A stretch of DNA of 32,000 nt, from NCBI GenBank assembly GCA_030668875.1, contig DAOVER010000006.1:69286-101285 (forward strand), given 5' to 3'. Under the pieces are notes generated by a model. That model ran no database searches and was not told the origin of the DNA. It saw nothing but the letters and a program-made list of their open reading frames with translations. Shown piece after piece: positions 8,048 through 29,606 of this stretch; position 1 is the first letter of the stretch, and each line of letters starts with the position of its first letter. The translations under genes and the position numbers were made by a program. This DNA comes from Candidatus Heimdallarchaeota archaeon. GTDB lineage: Archaea; Asgardarchaeota; Heimdallarchaeia; Heimdallarchaeales; Heimdallarchaeaceae.

Positions 8048-8116
8048 TTAGTTTGGAAACCAACCAGGTGGGAGAATATCTCCATCTCCTTCGTCAGGAT
8101 CGTATAGTTTTAACAT
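8048..8116 (-). CDS. Small peptide A, MLKLYDPDEGDGDILPPGWFPN (22 aa), downstream of TPR-1
   Basis: Manually translated; homologous to five other peptides in the window. GAGATGA SD-like motif; TTTTATAG box 42 nt upstream (8159-8166); TGTCA at 8185-8189. Confidence 0.85.
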   Translation of the reverse strand: MLKLYDPDEGDGDILPPGWFPN

Positions 8117-8216
8117 TTTACGTCATCTCGGAAAGGTTACCATATTAATAGAAGAAAGCTATAAAATATCAAAAGGAAAAAAGATGACAAAAAAAGAGGT
8201 GGCTATTTATCCTGGT

Positions 8217-9800
8217 TTATAGTGTTAGTGAGCGAATATCTTTTTGTTGCATGTCTAAATAGTCTAACAATTTATTCTCCAATCTGCTGAAACCATAATT
8301 CCTGCATTTTTTGATGGCCATGTATTGGAGAGCAGGTCCTAGAGGATCACCATTCTTGAAAGCACCAACCTGGATAAAAGCTTCCATGAAAACACGCAAT
8401 TCGAGAACTTCTATTTTATGGGTTTGATTTTCATATTTCCTTAACAATGGAGAGATTTCTGCAAAACGATTGATTTTGTAATATTCCTGTGCTGCAAGTA
8501 AATCTGCGAAAGCTTTCTCAACATAAGTCATTCTTTCCTCTACAGGTCTTCTTTTGAGTGTGTTTATTCTCTGAAGAACTTGTTCATCATCACTTCCCTG
8601 CCATATTAGGAAGTCTAGAATGTGTTCTACTCTTTTAGTGCTAGGATTATTTAACTTCTTTATATCTTGTAATTTTGATTTAGTCAAATTGGTATTAAGC
8701 AAAAACTCACTTAACATAATGGTATTACTATGATAAGTACCTACATTACTAATAATAGTCTGAATTAGGTCTTGAAATTTTTCTATATTGAAGTCATATA
8801 ATCTTGATTGAATGTAAAATTTAGTTAGAGTGAAATCATGGACTATCTGATTTTTATTGAAAGAGTCAAGATTCTTTACAGCTATTTCCTCTTCTAACAA
8901 CTCCTCGACCTTCTTCATTTGTTCCAGAGCCAATTCTAATCTTCCTTGTAAAGCATAGGTTGTAGTAATATGAGAAAGAGACATTAAATAGTATCCTGAA
9001 TAGATACTATCCTTATATATAGTTTTCAAAATTCTTTCTGCTTCTAACAAGTGTTTCTCAGTTTCACCAAGATTAAAAGATAACTTATGACTTACGCCAA
9101 TAAAATAATGCACAACAGATTGTATCTCTTCGGGCATGTTAAGAAGAAGGTTGTAATTACTTAGAATGTCTTTAACAAGAGCTAATGATTTCTCTTTGTT
9201 TTGTGTTTGTTGATATATGACTATTAAAATGCACAAAGTTTTTGCAAAACTTTGGAAATAACCATTTAAATAAAAGAAGTTTCCACACTCTTCTAATATA
9301 ACTGAACTTTTGAAATCTCTTGTTTCCAGCCATTGTTCAACAGCGCAAGTGTATTTTATAAAGTGAAAGATAAATCTATCAGGTTAATCTACTTCTTCTA
9401 GTAATTCTAAAGCTTTGACAATTTCATATTTTCCCCTTTCTTTTTTTCCTTTTAGTTTAGCTATATACCAAGCAAAAGAATGAGAAAAAGCTAAACCTTC
9501 CTTATAATTAATTTTATTTGCCAAAGTTTGCATTTCATGAAGTAGTTGGATTGATTTTTCCAATTTATCAGCTTGTTGAACAAATTGTAAAATTAAAAGT
9601 CCATCCAAAATTACGCGAGATTTAAAATCTTCAATCTTAGTTGCTATAAGGATACAATCCTCAATCAATTTTATAACAATTTTATCTGATCTCTTGTTAG
9701 ATGCTAGAATCTTCAAGTGAGATATTAATGCTTCTAATTCTGCACTTGATTTTAAATGATTGATATGTTCCTGTAATTCACATATTTCCATATAACTCAT
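8217..9800 (-). pseudogene. TPR-like helical repeat protein 1, interrupted by one in-frame TAA
   Basis: ORFs 9384-9800 and 8217-9236 are in the same frame and the gap reads open (PDRFIFHFIKYTCAVEQWLE...). TAA at 9384-9386 aligns with Gln (CAA) of paralogue 4. Confidence 0.85.
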
Positions 9801-9921
9801 CTTTACTAATTTGTGGAAAGAACATTTCTACACATATATCTCCACTTTCGTATATAAACTAGGTAGATTCACTTTGATAGATATTGTGAAAAAAAATAAA
9901 GAAGGGAATAGATTTCTTGGA

Positions 9922-9990
9922 TTAAGGAAGCCACATAGGGGGTAATATATCTCCGTCTCCTTCGTCAGGATCATATGTTTGTTTTATCAT
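9922..9990 (-). CDS. Small peptide B, MIKQTYDPDEGDGDILPPMWLP (22 aa), upstream of TPR-1
   Basis: Manual translation; GAGTGAT SD-like motif; TTTTAGTA box at 10033-10040 (42 nt upstream); TGTCA at 10057-10061. Confidence 0.88.
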   Translation of the reverse strand: MIKQTYDPDEGDGDILPPMWLP

Positions 9991-10151
9991 TGTGTATCAC
10001 TCATTTAGTTATACTTAGAAATAGGAAGAAGATACTAAAACAATAAGGAAATTAAATGACACAAAAACAGTAGAATCATTTACTACTATTTAGTTCATTT
10101 CAAAATGGAGAGAAATTGTTTGTTTCAAGCGCCGAAACGATTGAATATACA

Positions 10152-10187
10152 ATCTTACCACATAAATATTTTTCTCTGTGGTAAGAT
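10152..10187. repeat. Palindrome ATCTTACCACA-N14-TGTGGTAAGAT (copy 1)
   Basis: Perfect 11-bp arms with 14-nt AT-rich spacer. Confidence 0.85.
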
Positions 10188-10232
10188 ATTTCTTCTATAT
10201 CATTTTTCCACCTGATCCTTAATATCCTTTCA

Positions 10233-10274
10233 ATTATCTTACCACATTCTTTATTATTTGTGTGGTAAGATAAT
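10233..10274. repeat. Palindrome ATTATCTTACCACA-N14-TGTGGTAAGATAAT (copy 2)
   Basis: Perfect 14-bp arms with 14-nt spacer; same core as copy 1. Confidence 0.85.
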
Positions 10275-10300
10275 AATAAAAAAAAGTTTTTCGCTTGAAA

Positions 10301-10756
10301 TTATCTTAGCAGATCAGGGTGGATTTCCAATATCTTTAATTCACCATAGATTTCAAGAAGTTTGGTGGTTACGGAATACAATCGTTGAGAGACGTTACCT
10401 TTTCTATGTAACATGTTCTCGTCTGCTAATCTTGCAAGATAAGTACTGACTGTACTCATCTTTATTCCTTCTTTAAACACTATCTCATACAACTCACAGA
10501 CTTCATTAGAGGTAAACCAATCACTCTCAGGATAATGGTTCCTAATGATACTAGCAACTCTTTCAATAATTGAAGCTCCAAGGAGTTCGGTAATAGAGTT
10601 CATCTTAATTGGTTCGCGTTCTCCTTCAGTAGCAACGGCTTCTTTTCCAGTAACTAAAGCAAGTGTTGTCTTTAAACTCTCGGTGTCTCCTGAAGGTATC
10701 CTTATGATCGTCCCATCAGGCAGTTTAATTGTAATTTCTTTAGGCATTAGACTCAC
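10301..10756 (-). CDS. Winged-helix domain protein (151 aa)
   Basis: C-terminal WFTSNEVCELYE...MSTVSTYLARLADENMLHRKG...RLY fits a wHTH. Confidence 0.75.
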   Translation of the reverse strand: MSLMPKEITIKLPDGTIIRIPSGDTESLKTTLALVTGKEAVATEGEREPIKMNSITELLGASIIERVASIIRNHYPESDWFTSNEVCELYEIVFKEGIKMSTVSTYLARLADENMLHRKGNVSQRLYSVTTKLLEIYGELKILEIHPDLLR

Positions 10757-10879
10757 TTTGTTACTTGTTATGTTTACACAGTAATTTGTATTTAAAGGTA
10801 GATATCACGTTTGTCTAGGTATAGGCCAATAAAAACATACGTATTAACAAAAAATTGTTCCGACTAAAATTTAGACAGA

Positions 10880-10900
10880 CCCCACCAGTTCCATTGGAGA
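10880..10900 (-). promoter_or_regulatory. Third ORB-like element with G-string
   Basis: Minus strand TCTCCAATGGAACTGGTGGGG; 12 bp identical to the mini-ORB at 7967-7981. Confidence 0.6.
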
Positions 10901-11111
10901 GTATTATCTATATAAATAACTGTTTTCTGTATTAAATATAGAAAGACTTATATAATCATCATTTTTCTTTTATTAGGAGGCTATGTACAATTAAAATATA
11001 TTATACTTTTTTCCATAATATGTACAATAAATATCACTTCCACAAGAAACAATGGGGAGTCTGTATACTTGTCAGTTTTTATTTAACTATACAAATGTTT
11101 AAAATCTTTTA

Positions 11112-11411
11112 ATGACCGGAAATCTCGATACTATGGTTACTAGAGTACGTTTTTGTGCTAAGTGTGGACGTCCTGTCCAGGGTAAGGTTAATTATTGCGA
11201 AGACTGCACAGCTGATATTACAGCGGGTACCCAAGATAGATGCTCGATCTGTGGTAAAAGTAAACTTATGTCCCCATTGACATACAATGCTAGAATCAAG
11301 AAAGTCTATTGTAAAGAATGTCTTAATGTCTTTATTGCAGGTCTTAGAGCTAAGGAGATACCTCAAAGAGAAATTAATAAAATGTTAACCAAGGATTTTG
11401 TACCACTTTAA
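11112..11411 (+). CDS. Double zinc-ribbon protein (99 aa)
   Basis: Four CxxC pairs: CAKC, CEDC, CSIC, CKEC. Confidence 0.75.
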   Translation: MTGNLDTMVTRVRFCAKCGRPVQGKVNYCEDCTADITAGTQDRCSICGKSKLMSPLTYNARIKKVYCKECLNVFIAGLRAKEIPQREINKMLTKDFVPL

Positions 11412-11664
11412 TGGTCATTAAAACCTCAGAATCTATCACTATTTAATTTCCTTTTCTATTCTTCTTTTCCCTTTACAATAAGAAACCAATAGATTAGATC
11501 AAATCACTTCAGTTGCTCTATGAAAAAAGATGATTAGATAAGAACGGTAAACCAAAAGAAGAAGAAATCAGGAAACTTGGAATTAATTAATTTAAAAGAA
11601 TATATAAATTAAAATAAACGTGAACACAATTAATTCTTCAGAACAGTAAATAGGAGTAAATAGG

Positions 11665-13382
11665 TTATGTCAGTCTCACATATCCTTCTCTTAATGAATA
11701 AATCTCTCCATTACTTCGAAGTTGTTCTATAACTTTTTCAACAAAGTATTCTTCGATATTATTCTCTTTGGCAATCTCTTTGATTTTCCTTAAAGGCACT
11801 ATGTCGACACATCCTTTTCGAGATTCCTCTTTTATGATTAAATAGATTAACTCAAATTTTGCCTTCCAATTCTCCCCCCCTAATCCTAACAGCTGTGATT
11901 CTATTGTTTTTTTATATCCTATTTTCTTTAACGCATCAATTACAAACCATCTTACCTTCTCATCCTCATCTTTCAGACCTTAAATAAGAATTTTCATTAC
12001 CAGTTTACTTCCTTTGTTCCCTAATATTCTGGCAGCTTTTACTTGTAACCAGCTACTCTCATCTTTCAATATTTCAATTAGTTGTTCATCTGTTTTTCCA
12101 TCCCCTTTGTCCCCAAGCACAATTGCTACTCCTTTCCTTACAATCTTATTTTCTTCTTTTAGTGCATCAATGAGAATGAGTATTACTTGTTTGTCTTTTA
12201 TTAATTCTAATACCTCTACTGCTGCTCTCCTTACTTCCATATTGTCATCTTTTAGAGCTTTAATGAACAGACTAACACCTCTAACTCCGATGAATTTGGC
12301 TATTCTATATGGCGTGTCTCTTGCTCCTCTATTTGCAATCTCGTTTTTATCTTTTAACACTTCAAAAAGCAGATCACAAACTCGTTCATTTCCTTCTCTC
12401 CAACCTATATCACTTAAGGAATACTTAGCTGCATTTCTCACATTCTCAAATGAATCTTTAAGAGCTTCAATCAATGGTTCTGCTCCTAATAAGTCTCCTA
12501 TCTCCCCTAACGCTTTTGCAGCAACATGCCTTATGCTTTCATCGTCATCTTCTAGTACTTTTAAAAGTGGTTCAATAACATTTGTACCGCCAATTTTTCC
12601 TAATGCAATTACAATCTCCTTTTTTACCCGCAGGTACTGCTCATCTTTTAGTACTTCAATGAGTGGTTTTACAGCCTTTTCATGTCTTATATGTCCTAAT
12701 GCTAACACTGCATAACTTCTTATCCTTACATCTTCATCTTTCAGTGCTTCTATTAGTTGAGGGATTGCTCTTTCTCCTAAATCCAAATCTTTTATATAAG
12801 AAATTTCCATATTCTGATAATAATAATTTGCTTGCTTTCCAATCAATTCTAATGTTTTTGCTGCTTTAACCCTTACTTCCTGTGTTACGTCTTTGAGTGA
12901 TTTTCTGATATATGGTAACGCTTGTAAATCGCTAATATTCCCTAGCGCTTCTATTGCAATTAGTCTAATAACCTTATCTTGCGCTTCTAATGCATCAAAT
13001 AATGCATTCATCACACGTTGATCGTTGAATTTTTTTAATACTGTAGAAGCATTTTCCCTTACCATCTCATCTTCGTCTCCTAACATATTAAATAAGGGTT
13101 CTATAATTTGAGAACCACCAATATTACCCAATGATTCTACTACAGCTCTTCTTACATCCGAATCTTTATTTTTTAGCATTTCGATGAGCACAGAAAGCGA
13201 TTTTTTTTCAAGCCTTCTCCTTCACCCTCCCAGTATTTATCTTGAAATTCCTCTTCCAGTTTGATGAATTCAGGATCTTTAGATTCTTGTGACAATTTGG
13301 ATAGATTGAACTTTTGTTCCTTCTCTTTTCTAACTTCACTCTTCTTTTGAGTATCAGGTTCAAGCTGATCTTTCCAATCCAT
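11665..13382 (-). pseudogene. HEAT (PBS-lyase-like) repeat protein with C-terminal winged helix; disrupted by an A8 frameshift and an in-frame TAA
   Basis: ORF 13173-13382 joins 11980-13191 across the A8 run at 13201-13208. After TAA (11980-11982) the frame continues 104 codons (GLKDEDEKVRWFVIDALKKIG...GEIYSLREGYVRLT) to TAA at 11665-11667. Many LKDED..VR..A..ALG.IG repeats. Confidence 0.8.
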
Positions 13383-13430
13383 TACCTAGGAAAGAACAAT
13401 TGAATATAAAAATACAATCTTATGAATACA

Positions 13431-13500
13431 TTATTTTCACTTAAAGACCTAGTGGACTATGTTACCATTTTTTACAAACCTTTTCTACTTACATAAATTG
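13431..13500. repeat. Left direct repeat of cassette 2 (diverged copy of the ABC-permease 3' end)
   Basis: Aligns with 15661-15729; 24-bp identical core AAGACCTAGTGGACTATGTTACCA. Confidence 0.85.
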
Positions 13501-13671
13501 GCTTTAGATCTTTATTTTACGTTTTTTATTACATGAATCATACTTGTTTTTCTTATTCTGAGTTGTTTGTGTAAGAATTCCCTTCAAATACAGTTTTTCT
13601 GTCAACTTCTTTCCTTGTGTCTTTTAGTAGTTTGTTAATACTCTAAGTATGAATTTAACAAGTGATGAATC

Positions 13672-13740
13672 ATGATAAAACAAAAATATGATTCTGAACC
13701 AGGTGATGATGATATAGGACCTCCTTTATGGTGGCCATAA
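13672..13740 (+). CDS. Small peptide C, MIKQKYDSEPGDDDIGPPLWWP (22 aa), convergent with TPR-2
   Basis: Manual translation; AAGTGATG SD-like motif; TTTTAGTA at 13622-13629 (42 nt upstream); TGTCA at 13600-13604. Confidence 0.88.
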   Translation: MIKQKYDSEPGDDDIGPPLWWP

Positions 13741-13776
13741 TTAAATATCATAATTTCTTCTTTTTGTAAGTACTTA

Positions 13777-15351
13777 TTACTTAGATTGAAGCACATCCGT
13801 TCGTTGCACATCTAAATAGTCTAACAATTTATTTTCTAATCTGCTGAAACCATAATTCCTGCATTTTTTGATGGCCATGTATTGGAGAGCAGGTCCTAGA
13901 GGATCACCATTCTTGAAAGCACCAACCTGGATAAAAGCTTCCATGAAAACACGCAATTCGAGAACTTCTATCCGATGAAGTTGATTCTGATATTTTATTA
14001 AGATAGGATAAATCTCTAAATATCTTTTTTCAATAAATAGCTCATTTACAAGGCATAAATCAGAAAAAGCCTTTTCAACAAATGTAAAATCTTTAAGTTT
14101 AGGTTTTTTACTGAGTGCATCTTTGAATAATTCTATCCTTTTTTCTTTATTTGTTTGAGTTTTTGTTAGGACATATTCTATGATGTGTTGAATTCGATAT
14201 ATACTTGAATTGTTTGATTCTTTTAACTTTACAAGCTGTTTATAGTTTAACTCTGCATTCAATATAAATTCGCTTAAAAGGATAGAATCACTGTAATTAT
14301 TTTCAATTCCTTCATATATCAGTTTTATAAGAAGTTGAACTTTTTTTGAACTAAAACCATATAGTCGTGAATAAACATAGAATTTGACTAAATTTAGCGT
14401 ATGAGGAACTTGTTTTCTGCTATAAGGATCCAAATTTTTTCTTATAAAATCATCCTCAATTAATTCTTCAATCTTCTTAATATGTTCAATAGACTGCTCC
14501 AGTTTACCCTGTAATGCTTGAACAATAGTTAAATGAGATAACAGTCTAACATAGTAATAGGAATAATAACCACTCAGTTGTAGTTTTGAATTCATTAACA
14601 GATAGGATTCATTAAACAGATATTCTGATTGTCTCAAATTATGAATCAATAGTTGACCAACCCCAGCAAGATAATAAGCTATAGCTTGAACATCTTCTGG
14701 TAACTGTGTAAAGAGATATTTGTTGCTGAAGATCTGTTGAGAGATCTTTATTGCTTTTTTCTTATTTTGTGTTTGTTGATAGATTATAATTAAAATGCCT
14801 AAAGATTGTATCAAACTTCTATAATATCCTTCTTTAAAGAAATAATTTGAGCACTCTTCTAAAATTGAACCACTTTTGATATTATGATCTTCTAACCAAT
14901 ATTCAATTGCTAATGAGTAGTTACAGATATAATGGGCATATTTTTCGGGATTAGGGTTCTTCTTAATATGATTTATTGATTCCTCAAGCGCTTTCCTGCT
15001 TTTTTCTTTGTTACCTTGTATTTTTTCAATGTACCATTCAATATTATAAGAAAGAGCTAACCCCTCAGAATACTCAATCTCAATAGATAATTCTTTCATT
15101 TCTTGAACTATTTTAAATATTTCAGGAATTTTATCGAATAAGTGTTCAATCTGAGATATTTTGATTTCATAAGTTTTTACTAAAGATTTTTTATCATTAA
15201 GTAATCTGCATTTTTCTATTATTTTTTCTAGTAACCTAATATTATTCATGTCATATTTACTATTGGAGATTATAACCCTTAATTTATCAAGAAAGCTCTC
15301 CATATCTTTTCTTGATATAATTTTATCTAATTTTGTAATCAGGTTTTCCAT
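13777..15351 (-). CDS. TPR-like helical repeat protein 2 (intact, about 524 aa)
   Basis: Paralogue sharing the IEVLELRVFMEAFIQVGAFKNGDPLGPALQYMAIKKC C-terminal block; helical-repeat pattern throughout. ATG 15351 with upstream GGTGAT is preferred over TTG 15366. Confidence 0.85.
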   Translation of the reverse strand: MENLITKLDKIISRKDMESFLDKLRVIISNSKYDMNNIRLLEKIIEKCRLLNDKKSLVKTYEIKISQIEHLFDKIPEIFKIVQEMKELSIEIEYSEGLALSYNIEWYIEKIQGNKEKSRKALEESINHIKKNPNPEKYAHYICNYSLAIEYWLEDHNIKSGSILEECSNYFFKEGYYRSLIQSLGILIIIYQQTQNKKKAIKISQQIFSNKYLFTQLPEDVQAIAYYLAGVGQLLIHNLRQSEYLFNESYLLMNSKLQLSGYYSYYYVRLLSHLTIVQALQGKLEQSIEHIKKIEELIEDDFIRKNLDPYSRKQVPHTLNLVKFYVYSRLYGFSSKKVQLLIKLIYEGIENNYSDSILLSEFILNAELNYKQLVKLKESNNSSIYRIQHIIEYVLTKTQTNKEKRIELFKDALSKKPKLKDFTFVEKAFSDLCLVNELFIEKRYLEIYPILIKYQNQLHRIEVLELRVFMEAFIQVGAFKNGDPLGPALQYMAIKKCRNYGFSRLENKLLDYLDVQRTDVLQSK

Positions 15352-15482
15352 GGAATTAATCACCAAAGGTTAAAGAAACTTATATTTTAAACACTATAAA
15401 CAATTCTAAAAAAATTGCATTTAAATTGCATGTTTTACTCTAATTATATAATATTTTTAAAATAAAATAAAGAAAGAAACCC

Positions 15483-15548
15483 TTAAGGTCTCCATAAGGG
15501 TGGTCCTATGTCATCATCACCTGGTTCAGGATCATATATTTGTTTCAT
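15483..15548 (-). CDS. Small peptide D, MKQIYDPEPGDDDIGPPLWRP (21 aa), upstream of TPR-2
   Basis: Manual translation; AAGTGATG SD-like motif; TTTAAATA TATA box at 15590-15597 (41 nt upstream); TGTCA at 15614-15618. Confidence 0.88.
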   Translation of the reverse strand: MKQIYDPEPGDDDIGPPLWRP

Positions 15549-15660
15549 ATTGCATCACTTAAGTTGTTTACATTATTGTATAAGGAGAATATTTAAACCT
15601 CAAAAGAAAGAAATGACACTAAAAAAATAACGAGTTTAGATTGTTGAAATTTCAATAAAA

Positions 15661-15729
15661 TTATTTTCCTTTAAGACCTAGTGGACTATGTTACCACTTT
15701 TTCTAACCCTTTTCTACTTGCATAGATTG
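15661..15729. repeat. Right direct repeat of cassette 2 (overlaps the permease stop codon)
   Basis: Aligns with 13431-13500. Confidence 0.85.
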
Positions 15730-17497
15730 AGGTTGTTGTTGCTATTAGTATGAATCCTACTATTACTGATATAATTATTACTGGAAAGTTCGATAATACT
15801 GCATAAGGTACAAGAAAATATCTACCTATTATTGCTCCGAAATAGCTTCCTAAAGCTATACCTGGGATGATTTGCAGAAGTATTGCCGTCACTACTGATC
15901 CGTATATGCTTTTCTTTTTTATTCCTAGCCTATACAGTAGTTCGAAATCCTTTCTATACGTTAGGAAATACAGGAACGAATATACTATTATTTGGAATGC
16001 AAATATCGCGAACATTATTCCTCCTAACACCTTAAACATAGTTGTAAAACTGTTATAATTCGCTAGATTTTGCTCGATCATTTTTTCCATGCTTATTATT
16101 TGATATTCATATCTTTCAAGAATCTCGCTTATTTTATCGTAAACTGTAGTACTTATATTTTCTAACATTAGTAAATTAGAACCATTAGCCACACCCTCTG
16201 CTATTAGTTTATTCAGTGGGCAATAAACACTGTATCCTGCTGCGAAACTATCTATCACTACACCACTAATTTGGTAATCATTTGAATCATCGTACAGTTT
16301 TAATTTTTGTAGAGTGCTATTATCAAAAAACTTAGCTTCTAAAGTATCACCTATTAAAACTTCATTTTTTGAAGGATTTGGGTTGTCCCCTGCTATATAT
16401 TCATTTTCGTTGAAATTAATATTTTCATATCCTATTATGGTAGCGTATACTTTACGATCTTGACCTATTGGTATGTACACATTATTCACTATTTCAAGCG
16501 CTGACATCTCTTTTATTTGCAGTTTTGAAATGAAATACTTCTGATACGTTACGTTTATCCCTCCTAATTCAGTTAATAGTTGAGTTGATATTGAAGTATT
16601 ATAGAAATGTTCTAGGTCATTATCTAATCCTGTGTACGAGCTATTACTATATTCCTGTACTGGTAAGCTCTGATTAAAGAAATCAATTGCATCTGGCTCT
16701 CCTATAACGTACGAGTAATCTTGAAATCTACTATTCAAATTTACATAATGTGTTTCAGCAACTGTTAGTGGTCCCAAAACGAATGAAATTGAGGAGAAAA
16801 TAAGAAAGAAGCTAAATAGAAAGCTAGACAGTACTTTTCCTGATCTTAGGAAATTCTTTACACCTAGCTTTACGGATGAAGTAAACTTGTTTATTAATGC
16901 ATCAAATTCAAAGATGCTTTTGTAGTTACTTAAACTGCTGGAAGATACTTCAAAGTCTTTTTCACTGATGAATTTTAATATTGTATAATGGGCTTTAATA
17001 TAAGAAGAAACCAATATTACCAGATTCCCTCCTAGTATTGGGAGAAACCCTACATAGCTAAAGATGCTCCCAAACCCAAAAGAAACACTTGTTATAACTA
17101 AAACAATTAATCCTAGAACCATTCCTAGAATCAACATTATAGTTGCTGTCAAAATTTGATTGAAGATAAAATAGCTGTATATCCACCTACTTTTTCCTCC
17201 TACATTTTTCATAACAGCGATGTCATCTTTTTGACTTTGAAATTTAAGCTCTATTGATCTGATAGTGACAATTACTCCAATTATTATACAAACCACAATG
17301 AAAATTACTGTAATCAACGTGTAGGAACTGAAGAAAACATAATCCAGTGACATTTGGAGATTAGCTCTCATTAGTGAGAATAAACCTATACTGATTGTAA
17401 TAGCTGAGTAGGTTATTATTTGGCTAATAAAGGTAAATAGTGAGCCTAGGAACGATCTTTTAAAATCAATCCATGCAAATTTCAGTTGTCCTATCAT
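15686..17497 (-). CDS. ABC transporter permease, FtsX/MacB/LolE family
   Basis: Multiple TM segments, DIAVMKNVGG and LLYRLGIKK FtsX-type motifs, large extracytoplasmic loop, adjacent ATPase. Confidence 0.85.
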   Translation of the reverse strand: MIGQLKFAWIDFKRSFLGSLFTFISQIITYSAITISIGLFSLMRANLQMSLDYVFFSSYTLITVIFIVVCIIIGVIVTIRSIELKFQSQKDDIAVMKNVGGKSRWIYSYFIFNQILTATIMLILGMVLGLIVLVITSVSFGFGSIFSYVGFLPILGGNLVILVSSYIKAHYTILKFISEKDFEVSSSSLSNYKSIFEFDALINKFTSSVKLGVKNFLRSGKVLSSFLFSFFLIFSSISFVLGPLTVAETHYVNLNSRFQDYSYVIGEPDAIDFFNQSLPVQEYSNSSYTGLDNDLEHFYNTSISTQLLTELGGINVTYQKYFISKLQIKEMSALEIVNNVYIPIGQDRKVYATIIGYENINFNENEYIAGDNPNPSKNEVLIGDTLEAKFFDNSTLQKLKLYDDSNDYQISGVVIDSFAAGYSVYCPLNKLIAEGVANGSNLLMLENISTTVYDKISEILERYEYQIISMEKMIEQNLANYNSFTTMFKVLGGIMFAIFAFQIIVYSFLYFLTYRKDFELLYRLGIKKKSIYGSVVTAILLQIIPGIALGSYFGAIIGRYFLVPYAVLSNFPVIIISVIVGFILIATTTSIYASRKGLEKVVT

Positions 17498-17516: not shown

Positions 17517-18365
17517 CTAGTTTTCCTGTTCTTCTTCTATGAAGTCTAGCTCTTCTTCTGTCATGTTCATTAATTCTTCCTCTGTATAATCATCAATAGG
17601 TTCAGTTTCTTCGTTTTGCATCTCCATAGAACTGATAGATCTATACTTAGTATCTTGTTTCTTTTTTCTTTCAGGATGTTCTTCTTCAAGTGTTACAGAT
17701 TGTGCTCCTACACGATATATTGTCGATGCTATTTCCTTCATTTTGGGGTCATGTGATGATACAATAATAGTTATGTCTGTTGTTGTAAATATTTCTTTAA
17801 TTAATTCGCACATCATATCAGCTGATTCACGATCTAAATTACCTGTGGGTTCGTCTAATATTAGGATGTAAGGGTCATTAGACAATGCTCTTGCTATTGC
17901 CACACGTTTCTTTTCTCCCCCACTTAACTGTGCTGGAAAACTATCTTTCCTTTTATCTATCTTCAATCTCTCTAATAATTCGTCTATCTTTTTTTCTCTT
18001 TCTTCCTCCTCTCCATCAAAACCACATAATTCCTGGAAGAGGATTATATTTTCTTTTACAGTAAGTGTAGAGACCAAATTATTTTCTTGAAAAACAATTC
18101 CAAGATAATTTGAGCGAAAATCAGCTTTTTCTCTATCTTCTATTAGATCTATGTACAATCCAGCTACTTCTATTTCCCCCTCATTTGGGTGCAAAAGCCC
18201 AGTTAATATGTTTAATAGAGTTGTTTTTCCACTTCCACTTGGACCATACAATAATACCAATTCATTTCTTTCTACCTCTAAATTTACTTCTTTAAGTATA
18301 ACTAATTCCTCCCAGAATAATTGAAATTTCTTTGATATATTGGCAAAACGCACGATTTGTTCCAT
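17517..18365 (-). CDS. ABC transporter ATP-binding protein (LolD/MacB-like) with acidic C-terminal tail
   Basis: GPSGSGKTT, LSGGEKKRVAIARAL, ILILDEPTGNLD, H-loop SHD. ATG 18365 is preferred over 18380. Confidence 0.93.
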   Translation of the reverse strand: MEQIVRFANISKKFQLFWEELVILKEVNLEVERNELVLLYGPSGSGKTTLLNILTGLLHPNEGEIEVAGLYIDLIEDREKADFRSNYLGIVFQENNLVSTLTVKENIILFQELCGFDGEEEEREKKIDELLERLKIDKRKDSFPAQLSGGEKKRVAIARALSNDPYILILDEPTGNLDRESADMMCELIKEIFTTTDITIIVSSHDPKMKEIASTIYRVGAQSVTLEEEHPERKKKQDTKYRSISSMEMQNEETEPIDDYTEEELMNMTEEELDFIEEEQEN

Positions 18366-18448
18366 CTTAATCCCACACACAATTAAGTGGTAATAAGTAT
18401 TTATCTGTTTTATTATTTCTCTGTTCTGGGTAATAGAGTATAATAGTA

Positions 18449-18494
18449 AAAATATAGGTAGCGAAGTTTCGAAATGAGATTATCATTCAAGGGT
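18449..18494. repeat. Left direct repeat of cassette 3
   Basis: 46 bp matching 20433-20478 with 2 mismatches. Confidence 0.9.
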
Positions 18495-18563: not shown

Positions 18564-20156
18564 CTATACTGTTCTTCTTATATCCTTATGCTGCAATTGT
18601 AAGTACTTTAGTAATGTATTTTCTAATCTAGAGAATCCGTAGAGTCTGCATTTTTTAATTGCCATGTATTGTAAAGCTGGCCCAAGAGGATCTCCGCTAT
18701 TATAAGCTCCTACTTGAATGAAAGCCTCCATAAAGATGCGGATCTCTAGAACCTCAATTCGTTTGAGTCTACTCTCATATTGCTTGAGGAGAGGAGCGAT
18801 TTCTGCGTAACGCTTAAGAGAAAACAGTTGCTGTGCTATAAGGAGATCTGTATAGGCCTGTTCTATGAATGTAGTCTTATCTGTCTTTACTCGTTTTTCT
18901 AAGATAGAAATAAAGTTCAGATTTTTCTGTTCCTGACTAATTTCCGTTTCTAATTTTTGCTTTTCAAGCATGAATTCGATTAGATGTTTTACTCGATTAA
19001 TGCTGAAATTATCGATTGCTAATAATGATTGAAGTTTAGCAGAATCAAGATTGGAATTAAGGATGAACTCACTAAAGATCATAAAATCGCTATAATGAAC
19101 CTTACAATCTTCATTTATTTCTTCTATTAATTCTTGGTGTTCTTGAGAATTGTAACTGCTTAAACGTGATAAATTATAGAATTTTATTAAACTGTGAGTA
19201 TGAGTAATTTGCTTCTTGGTGTTTTCATCCAAATTTTTCTTGATAAATTCTGTTTGGAGAAGAGTTTCTGCTTCTTTAACCATATTTGAAGCTTGCTCAT
19301 TTTTCCCTTGTAAACCTCTAACGGTAGCAATATAAGAAAGTAAAACAAGATAATATGCAAAATAGATGCTGTTTTTGTATACTGGTTTGAGAATACTGTA
19401 AGCTTCATTAAAATATGATTCAGCTATTGCTAGATTAGCATCTAACATATACCCCAAACCTGTGAAATAGTAAATGATTCCTTTAAAATCGCTAGATAGT
19501 TTTTCGAAAAGAGTTCTGTTAGCAAGGATTCTATTACTTATGTTTAAGGCTTTCTTGCTCTCATGAGTACGACTGTAAATAATGCTCAAGAGACCAAAAG
19601 TTTGAGCCAAACTTCGGTAAAACCCTTCTTGAATGAAATGTTCAACACAGTCCTCTAAAAGCACCGCACTTTCCGCACTATGATTTTGCAACCAGATTTC
19701 TATCGCATATGAATATTTACACGTGAATATTGTATATGTATCTGACACATTTCTTTCGTTAATAAATTCAAGAGCAAGTTGTATTTCTCTACTACTACTT
19801 TTTGTGTTTCCTTGAAGTCTCTCAAGATGCCATTTAATCTGATGTACAAGTGCTAGTCCTTCGGAAAATTCTATTTTTTGGGATAATTCATACATTTTCG
19901 TTAATATTCTCTTAATTTTCACAATATTACTGGCGTGGTTATATAACTGTCTTATTTGTAAATCGTATAAACGAATAAGTGTTTTTGTGTCTTTTATTTT
20001 ACTGCTTTGTTCTATTGCATTTTCAATGTACTGACAGATTAATGGTTCGCTTTTATTAGAAGCAATGACTCTTAGCTTTTTTACTAGATCAAATAACTTC
20101 TCTCCACTAGTGATATTATTAACTTTACGAAAATTATTACCTTTCTCCAATTTCAT
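18564..20156 (-). CDS. TPR-like helical repeat protein 3 (intact, 530 aa)
   Basis: Paralogue with the same C-terminal block (FMEAFIQVGAYNSGDPLGPALQYMAIKKC). TTTATATA box about 24 nt before the ATG. Confidence 0.87.
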   Translation of the reverse strand: MKLEKGNNFRKVNNITSGEKLFDLVKKLRVIASNKSEPLICQYIENAIEQSSKIKDTKTLIRLYDLQIRQLYNHASNIVKIKRILTKMYELSQKIEFSEGLALVHQIKWHLERLQGNTKSSSREIQLALEFINERNVSDTYTIFTCKYSYAIEIWLQNHSAESAVLLEDCVEHFIQEGFYRSLAQTFGLLSIIYSRTHESKKALNISNRILANRTLFEKLSSDFKGIIYYFTGLGYMLDANLAIAESYFNEAYSILKPVYKNSIYFAYYLVLLSYIATVRGLQGKNEQASNMVKEAETLLQTEFIKKNLDENTKKQITHTHSLIKFYNLSRLSSYNSQEHQELIEEINEDCKVHYSDFMIFSEFILNSNLDSAKLQSLLAIDNFSINRVKHLIEFMLEKQKLETEISQEQKNLNFISILEKRVKTDKTTFIEQAYTDLLIAQQLFSLKRYAEIAPLLKQYESRLKRIEVLEIRIFMEAFIQVGAYNSGDPLGPALQYMAIKKCRLYGFSRLENTLLKYLQLQHKDIRRTV

Positions 20157-20218
20157 TCACATAATGATTATACGTAAAATGGTATATAAAGGGAGATATA
20201 ATTCTCCCCAGATAGAAA

Positions 20219-20287
20219 TCAGTGTGGGGACCAAAGTGGGGGAAGTATACTTTCGTCTCCGTCTTCCGGATCATATTTTTGTTTCAT
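20219..20287 (-). CDS. Small peptide E, MKQKYDPEDGDESILPPLWSPH (22 aa), upstream of TPR-3
   Basis: Manual translation; GAGTGATG SD-like motif; TTTTAGTA at 20330-20337 (42 nt upstream); TGTCA at 20355-20359. Confidence 0.88.
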   Translation of the reverse strand: MKQKYDPEDGDESILPPLWSPH

Positions 20288-20432
20288 TGTTCATCACTCT
20301 TTTGTGTTATACTTAGAAGAAGAAAAAACTACTAAAAGACAACAAGAAAGAAACTGACAAAGAGACTGTTTTACTATTAAAAATATCAATAATACAGGTA
20401 TTTTCTAAAAAGGATTAAGAATGCCATAAGAT

Positions 20433-20478
20433 AAAATATGGGTAGCGAAGTTTCGAGATGAGATTATCATTCAAGGGT
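20433..20478. repeat. Right direct repeat of cassette 3
   Basis: Matches 18449-18494; overlaps an 11-bp inverted repeat (20443-20453 / 20509-20519). Confidence 0.9.
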
Positions 20479-21394: not shown

Positions 21395-21461
21395 GTATAT
21401 TATGTTAAACAATTTGTCTTATTTAACTTTGCGGAACTTCTTACGCAAACGTCATCTAGTA

Positions 21462-23028: not shown

Positions 23029-23078
23029 CTTGATCTAATATTGAGTATGCTTTAGTATATATATGCACCACAAACAAT

Positions 23079-23111
23079 AATAAAAAATAGGGGGAGGAAA
23101 ATATATCCCCT
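23079..23111 (-). terminator. Possible terminator after pckG
   Basis: Minus-strand AGGGG/CCCCT hairpin followed by a T-rich tract just past the stop. Confidence 0.35.
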
Positions 23112-23127
23112 GATTTACTTATTAGTA

Positions 23128-25017: not shown

Positions 25018-25234
25018 AACAAGCGTTCTCCTAGTCTAATGTAAATTCTAATGTACTCTCAAAGAAAATTGAATTATAAATGAACTTTTGCATTTTATCA
25101 AATTTTTTTCGTTATTTTTGTATATATCCTTTCTTTTACAATTATTGGAGTGTAAATACAATCTTATTCATATAACGTTCTTATTTGTACATTTTTTTGA
25201 TGTCTAAATAAGATGATACAGTTGATACCTTGAA

Positions 25235-25397
25235 GGATTGTAGCTATGCACCAGTTACGTGGTGATTCTCGAGGCTACATCCAACAAACATCTAAAAGCG
25301 AACCGTAAGCATCTTTATGAAAAGATGTGGGCGGTGTAGGAGGATAAGTGATTTATCCATCTGAGTAAGTATAGGTTGTAAATCAGTCATCTTACTC
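25235..25397 (+). ncRNA. Candidate structured RNA (four consecutive stems) between ppa and pckG
   Basis: GC-richer than the flanks; four stems found by eye; G-U pairs favour the + strand. No family assignment. Confidence 0.3.
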
Positions 25398-25503
25398 TCT
25401 ATATGATGAACTCTATAAAATACACAAAATGATTGATTGAAACGAAGAAATCATGAATATTCCGTTATGGCAATGAAAATATGGGGACAATAAAAATGTT
25501 CCC

Positions 25504-26061
25504 TTATTTTTTGTCAAATAATTCCTTGTACAATTTCATAGAGTGTGTTATACATTTGAAGGCTTCTGCTTTCTTGTTCCACCCTATTACTTCTACTTTT
25601 TTACCATGTTCTAAACCTTTGTAGGTCTTGAAAAACTCTGCAATTTCACTAAGTGTATGAGGATAAACATCATCTAATCCATAAACCCCATGATAGAAAG
25701 GATCGGTTGAAGCAACTGCTAAAATCTTGTCATCGTGTCCTTTCTCATCTCTCATTCTAAGAATACCAATTGGTCGAGCTGCAACGACACATCCTGTAAA
25801 CGTTGGCTCAGAAATGAGAACAAGAATATCAAGGGCATCACCATCTTCAAAATATGTTTGAGGTATTAATCCATAGTCTCCTGGGAAGTGAACTGAGGAG
25901 TGCAAAACACGATCCAGGTAAATTATACCACCTTTCCCTAATTCGTATTTATTCTTACTATTTTTAGGATTTTCAATAATAGCATAAACCTCCTCAGGAG
26001 GATTTGGACCAACTTTGATTGTATGCCACAAAGAGTTTGTATCTACCATATTGCTTCTCAT
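25504..26061 (-). CDS. ppa: Inorganic pyrophosphatase (family I)
   Basis: KYEL, LDRVL, YGLIPQT, DGDALDIL, DEKGHDDKILAV motifs. Confidence 0.95.
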   Translation of the reverse strand: MRSNMVDTNSLWHTIKVGPNPPEEVYAIIENPKNSKNKYELGKGGIIYLDRVLHSSVHFPGDYGLIPQTYFEDGDALDILVLISEPTFTGCVVAARPIGILRMRDEKGHDDKILAVASTDPFYHGVYGLDDVYPHTLSEIAEFFKTYKGLEHGKKVEVIGWNKKAEAFKCITHSMKLYKELFDKK

Positions 26062-26229
26062 TAACCTTTACACGCAGTGATAAAAACATTGTCAAAAAGA
26101 GAAAAAGAAAATCTGTCATCTTATTTTATAGTAGTTTTTTTAGGATGAACACATTCAACTAGTGGAAGTAGAGGGTGGCGAAGAGAGGGCATAAGGATTA
26201 TGTGGCATCACTCGAAGGAAACAAAACCT

Positions 26230-27384
26230 CTATTTCCTCTTTTTTCTTACGAAATAAATTAAGGGCATAATTGCTGTAGTTATTATACAAATTGATAATA
26301 AGCTGGCTGTCGAATACTCATCTATTTCAGGTAAGTTTGCAAATTGTGCAAGTGGATAAAGATCTACTTCTCCATATCCCCCCCCTATTTCATAGAAACC
26401 ATCTCCGTCCCAATCGTCCCAGTAGTTTCCTTCAAGAGTTGTAGGATCATACCACAGATTACCTTCTGAACCATTAGTTGGTCCTTCAAAGTAGGCTTGT
26501 TCTGTTCCACCTTCGTTTCCAATAAACACATTATGGTGAATGATATTATTTGATGATTGATATGCTAAAACTACACCAAACTCCTCATTGGCTTCAAACC
26601 AGTTGTACTTAACTTCACAGCCATAAGATAAATCTAATCTTGTTCCATTACCGCCATTAAAACTACATGTGTTGTTATAAATCTCTGAGTATGAAGAATC
26701 ACAGACATATATTCCATCTCCATTGAAACTACATGTATTATTATAAATCTTGTATTTGTCTCCAGCATCAGCCATTAATGCTTTTCTTTGAACTGATTCT
26801 ACTGTATTATTGTATACTTCTGTATACCCTCCACTTGTCCATATACCCATATCAAAACCAGTAACATAATTGTGAGCTATGATTGAAAAATTACCTGTGT
26901 GCGCTATACCTTGTCCATAAGTTCCTCCATAGTCAAGCTTGTTGTAAATTATGGTGGTATTAGGACACCTGTAGCATTTGATACCTGTTTGTCCTAGGTA
27001 TTCAATCACATTGCCTTCTATTCTAGCTCCTGCTGTGGCATTCCAGATATACATTCCGTCAATACTAGAACTAACATAGCAGTTTTTAATAAGAAATGCC
27101 TTTACAGTATTAACAATAAATATCCCGTAGGATTCACTTGTTACAATCTCCAAGTTTTCAATTAAGTAAGGATCTGCTAACGATCCAGAACCATTTATAC
27201 CATAAGTTGCCCAATCACCATCATCATTAATAACGATGTTACTGAAGGGTATTCGTTCCATATTCCATGTAATCGATTCCTTTTCTGTGGAAATATGGCT
27301 AAAACCATTTTCAGTAGAACTGAAAACTAAAATTATAATCGAGAAAAATGCTAGTATAAACAAAATTTGTTTTTTAATTTTCAT
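26230..27384 (-). CDS. Secreted right-handed beta-helix (NosD/CASH-like) surface protein with C-terminal TM anchor
   Basis: N-terminal signal peptide; IYNNTCSFNG repeats; GNLWY...GNYWDD..G motif; TM plus RKKRK tail. Confidence 0.8.
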   Translation of the reverse strand: MKIKKQILFILAFFSIIILVFSSTENGFSHISTEKESITWNMERIPFSNIVINDDGDWATYGINGSGSLADPYLIENLEIVTSESYGIFIVNTVKAFLIKNCYVSSSIDGMYIWNATAGARIEGNVIEYLGQTGIKCYRCPNTTIIYNKLDYGGTYGQGIAHTGNFSIIAHNYVTGFDMGIWTSGGYTEVYNNTVESVQRKALMADAGDKYKIYNNTCSFNGDGIYVCDSSYSEIYNNTCSFNGGNGTRLDLSYGCEVKYNWFEANEEFGVVLAYQSSNNIIHHNVFIGNEGGTEQAYFEGPTNGSEGNLWYDPTTLEGNYWDDWDGDGFYEIGGGYGEVDLYPLAQFANLPEIDEYSTASLLSICIITTAIMPLIYFVRKKRK

Positions 27385-27478
27385 TATATCAACAAGGTTT
27401 ATGCTTTTTTATATGCATAAACAGTTATAAAGATTGTTCAGTTCATGGAACAAATAAAAAAAAGCAAGTTGAAAATAA

Positions 27479-27512
27479 TCTTACCACATAAAATGTATAT
27501 TGCGTGGTAAGA
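27479..27512. repeat. Palindrome TCTTACCACA-N14-CGTGGTAAGA (copy 3)
   Basis: Same arms (1 mismatch) and same 14-nt spacing as the copies at 10152 and 10233. Confidence 0.8.
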
Positions 27513-27629
27513 CAAACAAAAACAAGAAATCGACCTGAGGAATTTTGGAGATAAGAGGCGTATCTACAAAATATATTTTCATGACAAAAATAAAAACCTC
27601 CAAAGAACATAGGAACCCTCCCTTGAGTT

Positions 27630-29218
27630 CTATATTGCTTTTGTTATCTCCTTATGCTGCAATTGTAAGTAATCAAGTAATTTGTTTTCCAATCTAGAGA
27701 ACCCATACAATATACATTTCTTTATAGCAATATATTGCAAAGCTGGACCAAGAGGATCTCCGTTCTTATATGCTCCAACTTGGATAAAAGCTTCCATGAA
27801 GATACGCATCTCTAAAACCTCAATTCACTGTAGCCTGTTTTCATATTGCTTGAGAAGAGGAGAGATTTCAGAAAAGCGTTTAATCTTGTAATATTCTTGT
27901 GCAGCTAATAAATCTGCAAAAGCCTTCTCGACTTTAGTCATCCTCTCCTCTACAGGCCTTCTTTTCAAAGCGCTCACGTATTTTAAGACCTGGTAATCTG
28001 AAGTGTATTCTTCATTTAATTTCAATTTCTCTAGTAGGAAGTCTATGATATGATTAACTCTTGTGATGCTTGGATTGTGAAATTTTTTATTCTTATCAAC
28101 TGTTCTATTTCTAAACTTGCATTTACTAGAAATTCACTTAACATCATTGTATTACTGTAATATCTCTTAAGATTCATCATTATGTTAAGAATCAATGCTT
28201 TTACATCCTTCATTTGAAATCTTTGAAATCTTGATTGAATGTAGAATTTTGTAAGGTTTAGTGTATGGATTATCTGTTTTCTGTTGTACACGTCTATATT
28301 TTGTTTTGCTAAATCTTCTTGTAGTAAGTCCTCAATTTCTAACATCTTGTTGCATGCTAATTCTAGTTTTCCTTGTAGAGCATATATTGCTGAAAGATGA
28401 GATAGTGTTGTTATATAATACCCTGAATAAATGCTTGTTTTATAGATTGGCTTTAATATGTCTTGAGCCTTTGAAAGCTGTTCTTCAGCTTCTTTTAGAT
28501 TGAAATTTAGTTTATGACTAACACCAATGAAATAGTGAATGATAGACTTTATTTCTACCGGCATATCATCAAGTAAATCATGGTTAATGATAATTTTCTT
28601 AGTTTGAGATATTGAATTTTCTTTGTTTTGAGTTTGTTGATAAATTATTATTAAAGCACCTAATGACATAGCTAAACTATGATACAAATTATTTTCATAA
28701 AAATAGTCAACGCAACTTTCCAGAATTTCAATTGCATTTGGATTGCGATTCTCTAACCATTCTTCTAGAGCGTATGAGTAATTAATGAAGTGATAAATGA
28801 ATTCATCAGGTTGCTGTATTTCATTTAATAGCTTTACCGCTTTTTTAATTTCTTCTCTACTTCTCTCTCTATTTCCTTGAAATTTCTCAATGTACCAGGA
28901 AAATGAATAAGAAAATGCTATACCTTCTTCATAATTAATTCTATATGCCAAATGTTGCATTTCTTCAAGTAAACTAATTATTCTGTTCAGGTTACTAGCC
29001 TTGTGTTCCAATTGTAGAATTAGTAATCCATACAAAACAACAGTTGATTCATAATCTGAAATTTGATTTGCTTTAGTAATAAATTCCTCAATTCAATTAA
29101 CAACTTCTTTTTTTGAACGCATATTAGAAGCTAATATTTTCATATGCGAAATTAAAACCCTAAAATCTACCTCTGAGTTTATAGAGCTAATTCGTTCTTT
29201 GAGTTCGTTTAGTTTCAT
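27630..29218 (-). pseudogene. TPR-like helical repeat protein 4, pseudogene (two TGA, one frameshift)
   Basis: ATG 29218 (MKLNELKERISSINSEVDFRVLISHMKILASN); TGA at 29093-29095 (aligned Leu); 1-nt loss in the A6 run at 28083-28088; TGA at 27825-27827 (aligned Arg/CGA); frame resumes IEVLEMRIFMEAFIQVGAYKNGDPLGP to TAG at 27630. Confidence 0.85.
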
Positions 29219-29400
29219 ATTTCCCACTTTTACACTTCTACTAAATACACATCCTTCATATAACTACAGAATTCTTCCAAGATTTAGTAAACATAAGTTC
29301 TCAAACTTAAATCCTTCAATTGGTATATATACTCGGGAAATACTAAAACTAGATTTCTCAAAAAAAGTGTGAAATGACTCCATATTTCAAGCTATAGATG

Positions 29401-29463
29401 TCATGCTGGAGGTAAAAAGTCCTCGTCTCCTTCATCAGGATCATATTTTTTGTTGCTCATCAT
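29401..29463 (-). CDS. Small peptide F, MMSNKKYDPDEGDEDFLPPA (20 aa; TGA at the conserved Trp position), upstream of TPR-4
   Basis: Manual translation; GAGTGATG SD-like motif; TTTTTGTA box at 29506-29513 (42 nt upstream); TGTCA at 29531-29535. Restoring TGG gives ...LPPAWHL. Confidence 0.78.
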   Translation of the reverse strand: MMSNKKYDPDEGDEDFLPPA

Positions 29464-29606
29464 TCTTACATCACTCTTCTACGTTATATCTAGAAGAGTA
29501 AAAAATACAAAAAGACAACAAGAAAGAAACTGACAATAAAACTGTTTTACTAGTAAGCATATCAACGGAAAAAGCATAAAAGCCTGCAAATCCTAATTCA
29601 ATTGTC

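Follow-up and report, generated by a model that had tools for sequence, protein, structure and literature searches.

Paired micropeptide and tetratricopeptide-repeat genes in Heimdallarchaeaceae: modules that look like bacterial peptide signalling

A 32,000-nucleotide stretch of archaeal DNA (the window; positions 69286-101285 of contig C95) carries six minute open reading frames (ORFs), peptides A to F, beside four genes for long helical proteins of the tetratricopeptide repeat (TPR) type, TPR-1 to TPR-4. The question raised by this locus is whether a peptide and its neighbouring TPR protein act together as ligand and receptor in the manner of the bacterial RRNPP systems, as a first-pass annotation made from the letters alone had proposed. 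That annotation also took the source to be probably an Asgard archaeon, correctly: the genome holding the window (3.23 Mb, 99 contigs, 31-35% G+C) belongs to the family Heimdallarchaeaceae. Our analysis suggests that the genes probably form stand-alone two-gene modules, in which a TPR receptor recognizes a cognate micropeptide ligand much as Rap recognizes Phr, and by analogy the modules look like bacterial peptide signalling.

Each of the six ORFs reads exactly as first translated: peptides A (8048-8116, 22 residues, intact), B (9922-9990, 22 residues), D (15483-15548, 21 residues), E (20219-20287, 22 residues) and F (29401-29463, 20 residues) on the minus strand, and C (13672-13740, 22 residues) on the plus strand. 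The description of them as six homologous genes holds, except that F is a truncated pseudogene in which the conserved Trp codon is TGA; C duplicates D in inverted orientation, the two being 83% complementary over 75 nt. Members of the family are acidic, have 19-24 residues and share the motif (M)xKxYDP[DE][DE]GD[DE]x[IL]xPPxWxP(N/G), or in short YDPxxGDxxIxPPxWxP. Their genes mostly comprise 21-24 codons, with the stop directly after WxP or one residue further. The Trp and Pro residues are invariant, and the family alignment demonstrated that the acidic half is conserved equally with the Pro-rich end, with no division into leader and core. The peptides of genus g2 begin directly at MM(F/Y)DP, and orthologous peptides are near-identical between species. 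The claim that the peptides lack a Sec signal also stands, as they are net acidic and hydrophilic, with no hydrophobic stretch and no leader.

A six-frame motif scan of the whole 3.23-Mb genome retrieved 12 peptides only, six in the window and six on contig C9, and all 12 adjoin TPR paralogues; the only three other motif matches fall within long ORFs. The association is therefore far beyond chance. The synonymous changes among copies were first read as a sign of coding constraint, and the family-wide figures agree: over 84 gap-free peptide cores, codon-position entropy was 0.52, 0.50 and 1.40 bits at positions 1, 2 and 3, with a pN/pS of 0.32 and a Jukes-Cantor dN/dS of 0.14. Frameshifts or a dN/dS near 1 beside homologues in other genomes had been named as evidence against the peptides, and the ORFs are instead kept as ORFs there. 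Judged by their sequences, the peptide ORFs are real genes under purifying selection.

The four TPR genes, all on the minus strand, are paralogues of about 525 residues as first described, but only two are intact. TPR-2 (13777-15366) encodes 529 residues from a TTG, or about 524 from an ATG at 15351 that stands behind GGTGAT and is the likely true start, and TPR-3 (18564-20156) encodes 530 residues. TPR-1 (8217-9800) is a pseudogene whose full-length frame is interrupted by a single in-frame TAA at 9384-9386, and TPR-4 (27633-29216) has decayed to a pseudogene, broken by two in-frame stops and, near 28060-28076, by one frameshift. In a comparison of four DNA runs, contigs from the run of the probable source sample re-found the window sequence, including the TAA at 9384. 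TPR-4 is broken and peptide F is nonsense-mutated; pair 4 has therefore decayed as a pair. Pseudogenes are frequent in the window and in relatives alike.

The two kinds of gene are linked as closely as first reported. Every TPR gene in the window has a peptide gene 62-185 bp upstream (B 121 bp from TPR-1, D 116 bp from TPR-2, E 62 bp from TPR-3), and second peptides lie downstream of TPR-1 (A, in tandem, 100 bp) and of TPR-2 (C, convergent, 36 bp beyond its 3' end). One to three same-strand peptide genes lie less than 700 bp upstream of 52 of 59 TPR ORFs, and across 48 loci of other genomes nearly every TPR gene has one to four same-strand peptide ORFs upstream. Other peptide genes lie downstream, are convergent or form tandem arrays of two to four, and every one of them has a conserved upstream region to itself. 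Outside the main cluster the modules stand alone: their neighbours are unrelated housekeeping genes and the pair is the sole constant, so the pair is the unit. Peptide class, moreover, tracks TPR clade: the labels change 9 times on the tree, compared with 19.2 times on average after shuffling, and none of 200 shuffles came down to 9.

The micropeptide family comprises at least 96 genes (92 unique) in the window genome and the 48 loci of other genomes, representing about 25 Heimdallarchaeaceae genomes; this count was taken from those loci, and a further metagenome scan contributed 17 loci only. The TPR family is present in 23 of 27 other Heimdallarchaeaceae genomes (genus g1, 20/21; g2, 2/2; g5, 1/1), and copy number is high, at about 10 pairs per genome. 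It was not found in genera g3 (0/2 genomes) and g4 (0/1), in any of 272 Asgard genomes searched outside the family, or on the viral contigs searched. A word-indexed search gave 144 matches from Heimdallarchaeota metagenome-assembled genomes, all nameless or called 'TPR repeat protein', and phmmer, run exhaustively against 1.84 billion proteins, retrieved 63 representatives, all of them without a known name. Six peptide sequences (five from the window, one from C9) were absent from a collection of 15 billion predicted proteins, and our literature search found no publication on the peptide or TPR family. On metagenome contig L063 (9827-9949, plus strand) the stop after WRP is gone and the peptide ORF extends to 40 codons; it was annotated by a gene caller because the lost stop had lengthened it.

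About 100 nt upstream of the peptide genes are conserved and consist of ACTAGTAAAAC, a 31-nt T/C-rich element, TTCTAAGTATAAC and then GAGTGAT, a Shine-Dalgarno-like box 6-12 nt before the peptide ATG; a T-tract lies past the stop codon. The TPR gene has its own TATA-like TTTATATA box about 30 nt before its start, as upstream of TPR-3. From the conserved upstream region, the T-tract and the separate TTTATATA box we infer that the peptide gene and the TPR gene are two transcription units, with the peptide gene under special control. The 31-nt element is identical before three peptide genes, the copy of peptide E (20330-20360, minus strand) recurring before two C9 peptide genes; conserved copies precede peptide C (13599-13629, plus strand; related to TTGTCAG..TTGTTGTCTTTTAGTA) and peptide F (29506-29536, minus strand). 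Genome-wide, at up to 7 mismatches, the element was found only before peptide genes, before a decayed orphan on contig C68 and in a probable chance match on contig C56, and this search gave no wider regulon. The C68 orphan (~59999-60110, plus strand) is an 11-codon remnant, MQKNDPKEEDQ, preceded by the element (5 mismatches) and a GTGATG box, with no TPR gene nearby.

For the complex prediction, the C9 paralogue (528 residues) was folded together with the product of the natural 31-codon ORF, starting with ATG, in which its upstream peptide is contained; each chain was given an alignment. The interaction prediction score from aligned errors (ipSAE) was 0.76 (three runs: 0.39, 0.76, 0.76), against 0.01 for the best of three controls; 58 of 80 solved complexes reach that mark, as do 2 of 110 mismatched pairs. 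At least 40% of contacts are common to the runs, with a partner predicted local distance difference test (pLDDT) score of at least 41. In the predicted complex, peptide residues 13-31, the entire conserved core, contact TPR residues 27-425, and the tightest contacts are those of W28, x29 and P30 with TPR residues 67, 104-111, 142-150 and 168-184. Residues of the predicted interface are more conserved than other residues of the repeat region (0.594 vs 0.515, permutation p ~0.011), and the interface mixes invariant and variable positions. The first-pass annotation had expected an AlphaFold-type model to place PPxW in the concave groove; for the C9 pair this is what was predicted, with clean controls, and position-specific covariation backs it.

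Covariation was measured on 39, then 54 peptide-TPR pairs, non-redundant at 95%, over 411 TPR columns. After average product correction (APC), 14 of the top 30 among 4,675 column pairs involve residues of the predicted interface, where 3.75 were expected (P = 4e-6). The covarying positions of the two chains run antiparallel (Spearman -0.86): TPR residues 63-108 go with peptide positions 29 and 31, residue 183 with 27, 266 with 24, 318 with 21, and 382-438 with 17 and 18. Residues 67 and 104, predicted contacts of x29, rank 1 and 10 among the 411 columns (4 and 8 in the larger set), and residue 183, a predicted contact of x27, ranks 7 (3 in the larger set), whereas swapped controls rank 188-397. 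The changes are size-compensating (Ala with Met183, Leu with Gln183, Phe with Gly108), and the covarying pairings look steric. The covariation independently recovers the antiparallel full-groove pose predicted by the model, and the TPR protein probably clasps its neighbouring peptide. In silico, the genes are real and linked, and the binding pose is backed by covariation.

Several observations weigh against this explanation. One of the three complex runs reached only 0.39, the score being the model's own confidence, and the pLDDT of the peptide in the complex is low (42-64). Raw mutual-information top lists were not robustly enriched in interface residues (1-4 of 30), the signal becoming clear only after APC or at the specific predicted contacts. 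The covariation statistics come from related sequences and are inflated by kinship, although all columns share one tree, and several of the top covarying pairs reuse identical columns. Some arrays include peptides of a class unlike that of the adjacent TPR gene. TPR-1 is broken while both its peptides, A and B, are intact, so the peptides may have a life of their own. Finally, no output domain or partner was found for the TPR protein, and any 'switch' consequently rests on what is inferred from Rap and NprR.

The AlphaFold 2 model of the TPR protein (pLDDT 85.9) is an all-helical superhelix of 30 helices. No helix-turn-helix (HTH) domain had been seen on the receptor, and none emerged here: Pfam gave no HTH match, and the full and C-terminal models run as continuous TPR-like helices from end to end. 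In an exhaustive structural comparison, the VIA Z scores were 19.8 for APC5, 18.0 for APPBP2, 17.3 for RapI, 17.2 for NprR, 16.9 for LGN, 15.9 for PlcR, 15.3 for RapH, and 14.1 each for AimR and the pLS20 Rap. Rap, NprR, PlcR and AimR fall within the 16 best of 48,161 chains, with unrelated TPR scaffolds scoring equal or higher, and the top 50 matches are all TPR or TPR-like, as befits the TPR solenoid superfamily. The RapI alignment covers 337 of 359 residues and begins at model residue 19, opposite residue 14 of RapI; a Rap-like N-terminal bundle was not distinguishable. Foldseek E-values were weak (1e-5 to 2e-3). At the sequence level, Pfam gave sub-threshold matches only (TPR_12 in 17/30 members, TPR_MalT in 12/30), NCBIfam gave none, and Pfam, NCBIfam and phmmer did not place the protein in Rgg_C, ComR_TPR, Rap, NprR or PlcR. 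The modelled fold is compatible with RRNPP receptors and not specific to them: it is like Rap, NprR and PlcR but equally like APC5, APPBP2 and LGN, which is why we describe the system as RRNPP-like in its working and not as a member.

The most conserved part of the TPR protein is its last ~70 residues (mean column identity 0.77 vs 0.53). Folded alone, the last 106 residues form five TPR-like helices (pLDDT 88), whose best fold matches are MalT domain III (Z 10.2) and the C-terminal repeats of RRNPP receptors (Z 8-10), values that common helical arrangements also give. By language-model features the C-terminus lies nearest the Rgg_C and ComR_TPR clusters (score 0.95), no more than a lead, and this module gave no Pfam match, no PDB sequence match (best E 1.3) and no Foldseek match at E <= 0.001. 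Two distant TPR paralogues (C19:49572-51230, plus strand; C20:9155-10876, minus strand) of 552-573 residues and 22-29% identity have no conserved C-terminal module and no YDP-type peptide gene nearby. A conserved ORF of 29-30 residues upstream of the C19 paralogue was considered as a second micropeptide family and discarded, being the C-terminus of a 439-residue upstream gene of the metallo-beta-lactamase fold.

As a mechanism, we propose that the unprocessed peptide would lie extended and antiparallel in the concave groove of the neighbouring TPR protein, with the C-terminal PPxWxP(N) anchored on repeats 2-5 (about residues 63-190) and the acidic YDPxxGD half on later repeats (about residues 260-430). 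Variable groove residues would read the positions at which the peptides vary, namely the x of PPxW, that of WxP and the tail residue, and each paralogous pair would therefore be cognate in the manner of Rap-Phr. On the analogy of Rap and NprR, binding would most likely close or reshape the superhelix, and this change would switch the activity of the C-terminal 70 residues, which lie outside the predicted interface and presumably contact a partner common to all paralogues. Both the conformational switch and the regulatory output are drawn from that analogy.

Comparison with known systems places these modules near, and outside, the described families. Rap-Phr likewise has a tiny peptide gene beside a cytoplasmic, all-helical TPR receptor without a DNA-binding domain, many diverged cognate pairs per genome, and a peptide in the concave groove, which is predicted in the archaeal case. 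The archaeal TPR protein, however, has no detectable sequence relationship to Rap, is about 150 residues longer, carries the extra, highly conserved C-terminal module, belongs to an archaeal host and has no known response-regulator target. Its peptide gene lies upstream with its own promoter, whereas the Phr gene lies downstream and overlaps; and its peptide has no signal peptide and shows no pentapeptide processing, a 19-residue core being bound in the prediction. RRNPP peptides are secreted pro-peptides processed to 5-10 residues, while here the prediction has the core bound in its entirety, and covariation extends along it. The HTH-bearing RRNPP systems (NprR-NprX, PlcR-PapR, Rgg-SHP, ComR-XIP, PrgX, AimR-AimP) share the TPR-type fold; the archaeal C-terminal 106 residues resemble the C-terminal repeats of Rgg2, PrgX, PlcR and NprR (Z 8-10); and the SHP, ComS and PrgQ precursors are of comparable length (~17-24 residues). 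They differ in that the archaeal receptor has no HTH, its peptides are acidic and hydrophilic rather than hydrophobic, and no Pfam RRNPP family was matched; the Z-scores of the fold comparison are attained by generic TPR solenoids, too. The first-pass proposal of an RRNPP-like system is partly supported: of the RRNPP traits, adjacency, co-diversification and, by prediction, groove binding are present; an HTH, family membership by sequence and signs of a processed, secreted pro-peptide were not seen.

Eukaryotic TPR scaffolds (LGN/Pins with Inscuteable or Frmpd4, APPBP2, APC5 and other APC/C TPR subunits) fit the fold at least as well. LGN binds peptides of ~20-40 residues stretched along its entire inner groove, and the degron that APPBP2 recognizes is C-terminal and contains Pro; both modes resemble the predicted archaeal pose. 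Their ligands, in contrast, are segments of large proteins and not products of micro-genes beside the receptor; the comparison concerns the fold alone, with no evident sequence relationship and no homology claimed. MalT domain III (TPR_MalT, PF17874) provided the sole recurrent sequence hint (best E 6.3e-5; 22.9 bits vs a cut-off of 45) and is the best fold match of the archaeal C-terminal part (Z 10.2), but all matches are under the curated cut-off and the archaeal protein has neither the STAND ATPase nor the LuxR HTH.

The modules of the window are set into a backbone of other genes. On the minus strand, peptide E and TPR-3 are followed by an ATP-binding cassette (ABC) ATPase of the LolD/FtsE/MacB type (17517-18380) and an FtsX-type (MacB-like) ABC permease (15686-17497), a candidate exporter, and then by peptide D and TPR-2. 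Genus g3, which is without modules, has an uninterrupted backbone of winged HTH (wHTH), DUF6788, ABC, FtsX, Zn-ribbon and wHTH genes (the sister-genus locus L078 is cassette-free); in the window and in genera g1 and g2, peptide-TPR cassettes occupy differing intergenic positions of the ABC/FtsX backbone. Direct repeats bracket two cassettes: 76-nt copies, 83% identical, at 13425-13500 and 15654-15729 enclose peptide C, TPR-2 and peptide D, the right copy overlapping the 3' end of the FtsX gene, and 46-nt copies, 96% identical, at 18449-18494 and 20433-20478 enclose TPR-3 and peptide E. These repeats are of the local target sequence, and no recombinase was found inside the 2-kb cassettes. Read-contig joints 13413->15696 (run X4, depth 9) and 11409->15696 (run X5) suggest relatives without cassette 2, with the proviso that read contigs were placed at 85% likeness and may stem from other organisms, many joints being due to paralogous repeats. 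The ABC/FtsX pair is single-copy and lies within a few kb of TPR cassettes in g1 and g2, its FtsX proteins being only 43-53% identical. A part in the modules as their dedicated exporter is not supported, as the same operon stands in the same backbone in genus g3, which lacks them. The gene order indicates that the ABC pump predates the modules, though the cassettes cluster round it.

Two broader explanations were weighed against the simple ligand-receptor module. If the peptides were exported (e.g. by the MacB-type ABC/FtsX pump of the main cluster), accumulated outside, and were re-imported and sensed by the cytoplasmic, Rap-like TPR receptors, the modules would be true RRNPP-type cell-to-cell signalling, with the paralogous pairs as separate channels or pherotypes; this special case of our preferred explanation appears unlikely. 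The architecture fits it, in that a minute gene adjoins a TPR receptor, each genome has many pairs that have diverged, and some peptides are orphans, and it gains from the place of the four RRNPP receptors among the 16 best chains, from the C-terminal language-model lead and from the ABC/FtsX pair near the cassettes of g1 and g2. In streptococci an ABC pump exports the SHP and ComS precursors, which are about as long. The peptides themselves argue the other way: they are strongly acidic and hydrophilic, carry no signal or leader sequence, begin at MM(F/Y)DP in g2, and are near-identical between species as orthologues, unlike typical pherotype diversification. Processing to a short pheromone is also disfavoured, because the prediction engages all 19 residues of the core, over which the covarying positions are spread, and the ABC/FtsX pair belongs to the module-free g3 backbone and is present in 8 of the 48 loci, the others having housekeeping neighbours only. 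It is accordingly a doubtful proposition that the modules are the first archaeal peptide-based cell-to-cell communication, with about ten receptor channels per genome and unprocessed peptides exported, perhaps by a MacB-type pump; that cytoplasmic TPR receptors would then control a shared target via the conserved C-terminal module is part of the same tentative picture. Alternatively, the TPR protein might be an effector or sensor that is harmful or defensive when free and the abundant micropeptide its neutralizing antidote or decoy, so that the modules would be selfish or defence cassettes that spread and decay. Such a conflict or addiction role would suit the restriction to one family (23/27 genomes, against 0/272 other Asgard genomes), the rarity of the TPR protein (63 representatives among 1.84 billion), the ~10 copies per genome with frequent pseudogenes, the bracketing 46-nt and 76-nt direct target repeats, the cassette-free backbone of g3 and the co-occurring relatives with cassette-free forms. 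We nevertheless judge it improbable: Pfam and NCBIfam scans found no toxic or enzymatic domain in the TPR protein (the PADLOC library was outside the search), the two genes have separate promoter-like regions where a type II toxin-antitoxin pair would share one autoregulated operon, and neither viral-contig relatives nor a recombinase in the cassettes were found.

Two further explanations would deny the peptide its role as a ligand. Since the peptide ORF is almost always upstream of and on the same strand as the TPR gene, it could be a cis-acting leader or arrest peptide (an upstream ORF) in which ribosome stalling at PPxWxP-stop would control transcription or translation of the TPR gene, with no function in trans. 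Ribosomes are known to stall at Pro-Pro and at Pro-stop, and TnaC, an arrest peptide of 24 residues, likewise has a conserved Trp and ends in Pro. This we hold to be very improbable, given the T-tract after each peptide stop and the TATA box (TTTATATA) of the TPR gene itself, the downstream, convergent and arrayed copies each with a conserved upstream region, the equal conservation of the acidic half far from the stop, and the peptide-groove covariation, which is not expected of a purely cis-acting leader. The many near-identical, short, precursor-like genes in arrays, their invariant Trp and Pro residues and the ABC exporter nearby might also recall precursors of a ribosomally synthesized and post-translationally modified peptide (RiPP), for instance one modified at Trp, with the TPR protein as recognition scaffold or chaperone. 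This, too, is very improbable: no modifying enzyme was found in or near the modules in any examined locus, the entire peptide is conserved where a RiPP precursor is organised into leader and core, and the ABC pump has no peptidase domain and is older than the modules.

To our knowledge, side-by-side pairs of peptide ligand and TPR receptor have so far been described from Bacillota and their phages, and our literature search found no archaeal pair. The peptide side of this family was previously unannotated, and in Heimdallarchaeaceae, which count among the closest relatives that eukaryotes have in the Archaea, the family has grown to about ten pairs per genome. The modules provide a ready and testable set of cognate peptide-protein pairs with predicted specificity residues, and could reveal how Asgard archaea regulate themselves or communicate. 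Even if the modules acted inside the cell only, dedicated micro-genes making a 19-residue groove ligand for a solenoid protein would still be unusual. Genes of ~22 codons under clear purifying selection have, moreover, been systematically missed in Heimdallarchaeaceae genomes.

The remainder of the window is housekeeping in character, with genes for S10, elongation factor 2, Orc1/Cdc6, phosphoenolpyruvate carboxykinase and pyrophosphatase, and gave no Rfam RNA family and no tRNA by ARAGORN. Orc1/Cdc6, small wHTH and DUF6788 genes (5432-7572) directly adjoin cassette 1, and a Cdc6-wHTH pair also flanks a TPR module in genus g2 genomes (L064, L065); the cassette 1 locus may lie near a replication origin. 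A ~52-nt palindromic element (ATCTTACCACA ... TGTGGTAAGAT) occurs in three copies, two in tandem beside cassette 1 (10148-10199 and 10232-10283) and one just past the end of TPR-4 (27474-27525), and could serve as a terminator or bind a protein, or else be a small repeat element. A gene for a 403-residue HEAT/PBS-lyase-repeat protein (11980-13191, minus strand) separates the Zn-ribbon gene from cassette 2, and its region has the strongest GC skew in the window (-0.26). The protein had no match in the 48 loci, other genomes lack it at the equivalent place, and in a related strain the Zn-ribbon gene appears to be joined directly to FtsX. In two other genomes, proteins of ~650 residues with a faint Cas12f/TnpB-like match are encoded within a few kb of TPR modules (L063, 12327-14306, minus strand; L065, 15671-17611, plus strand).

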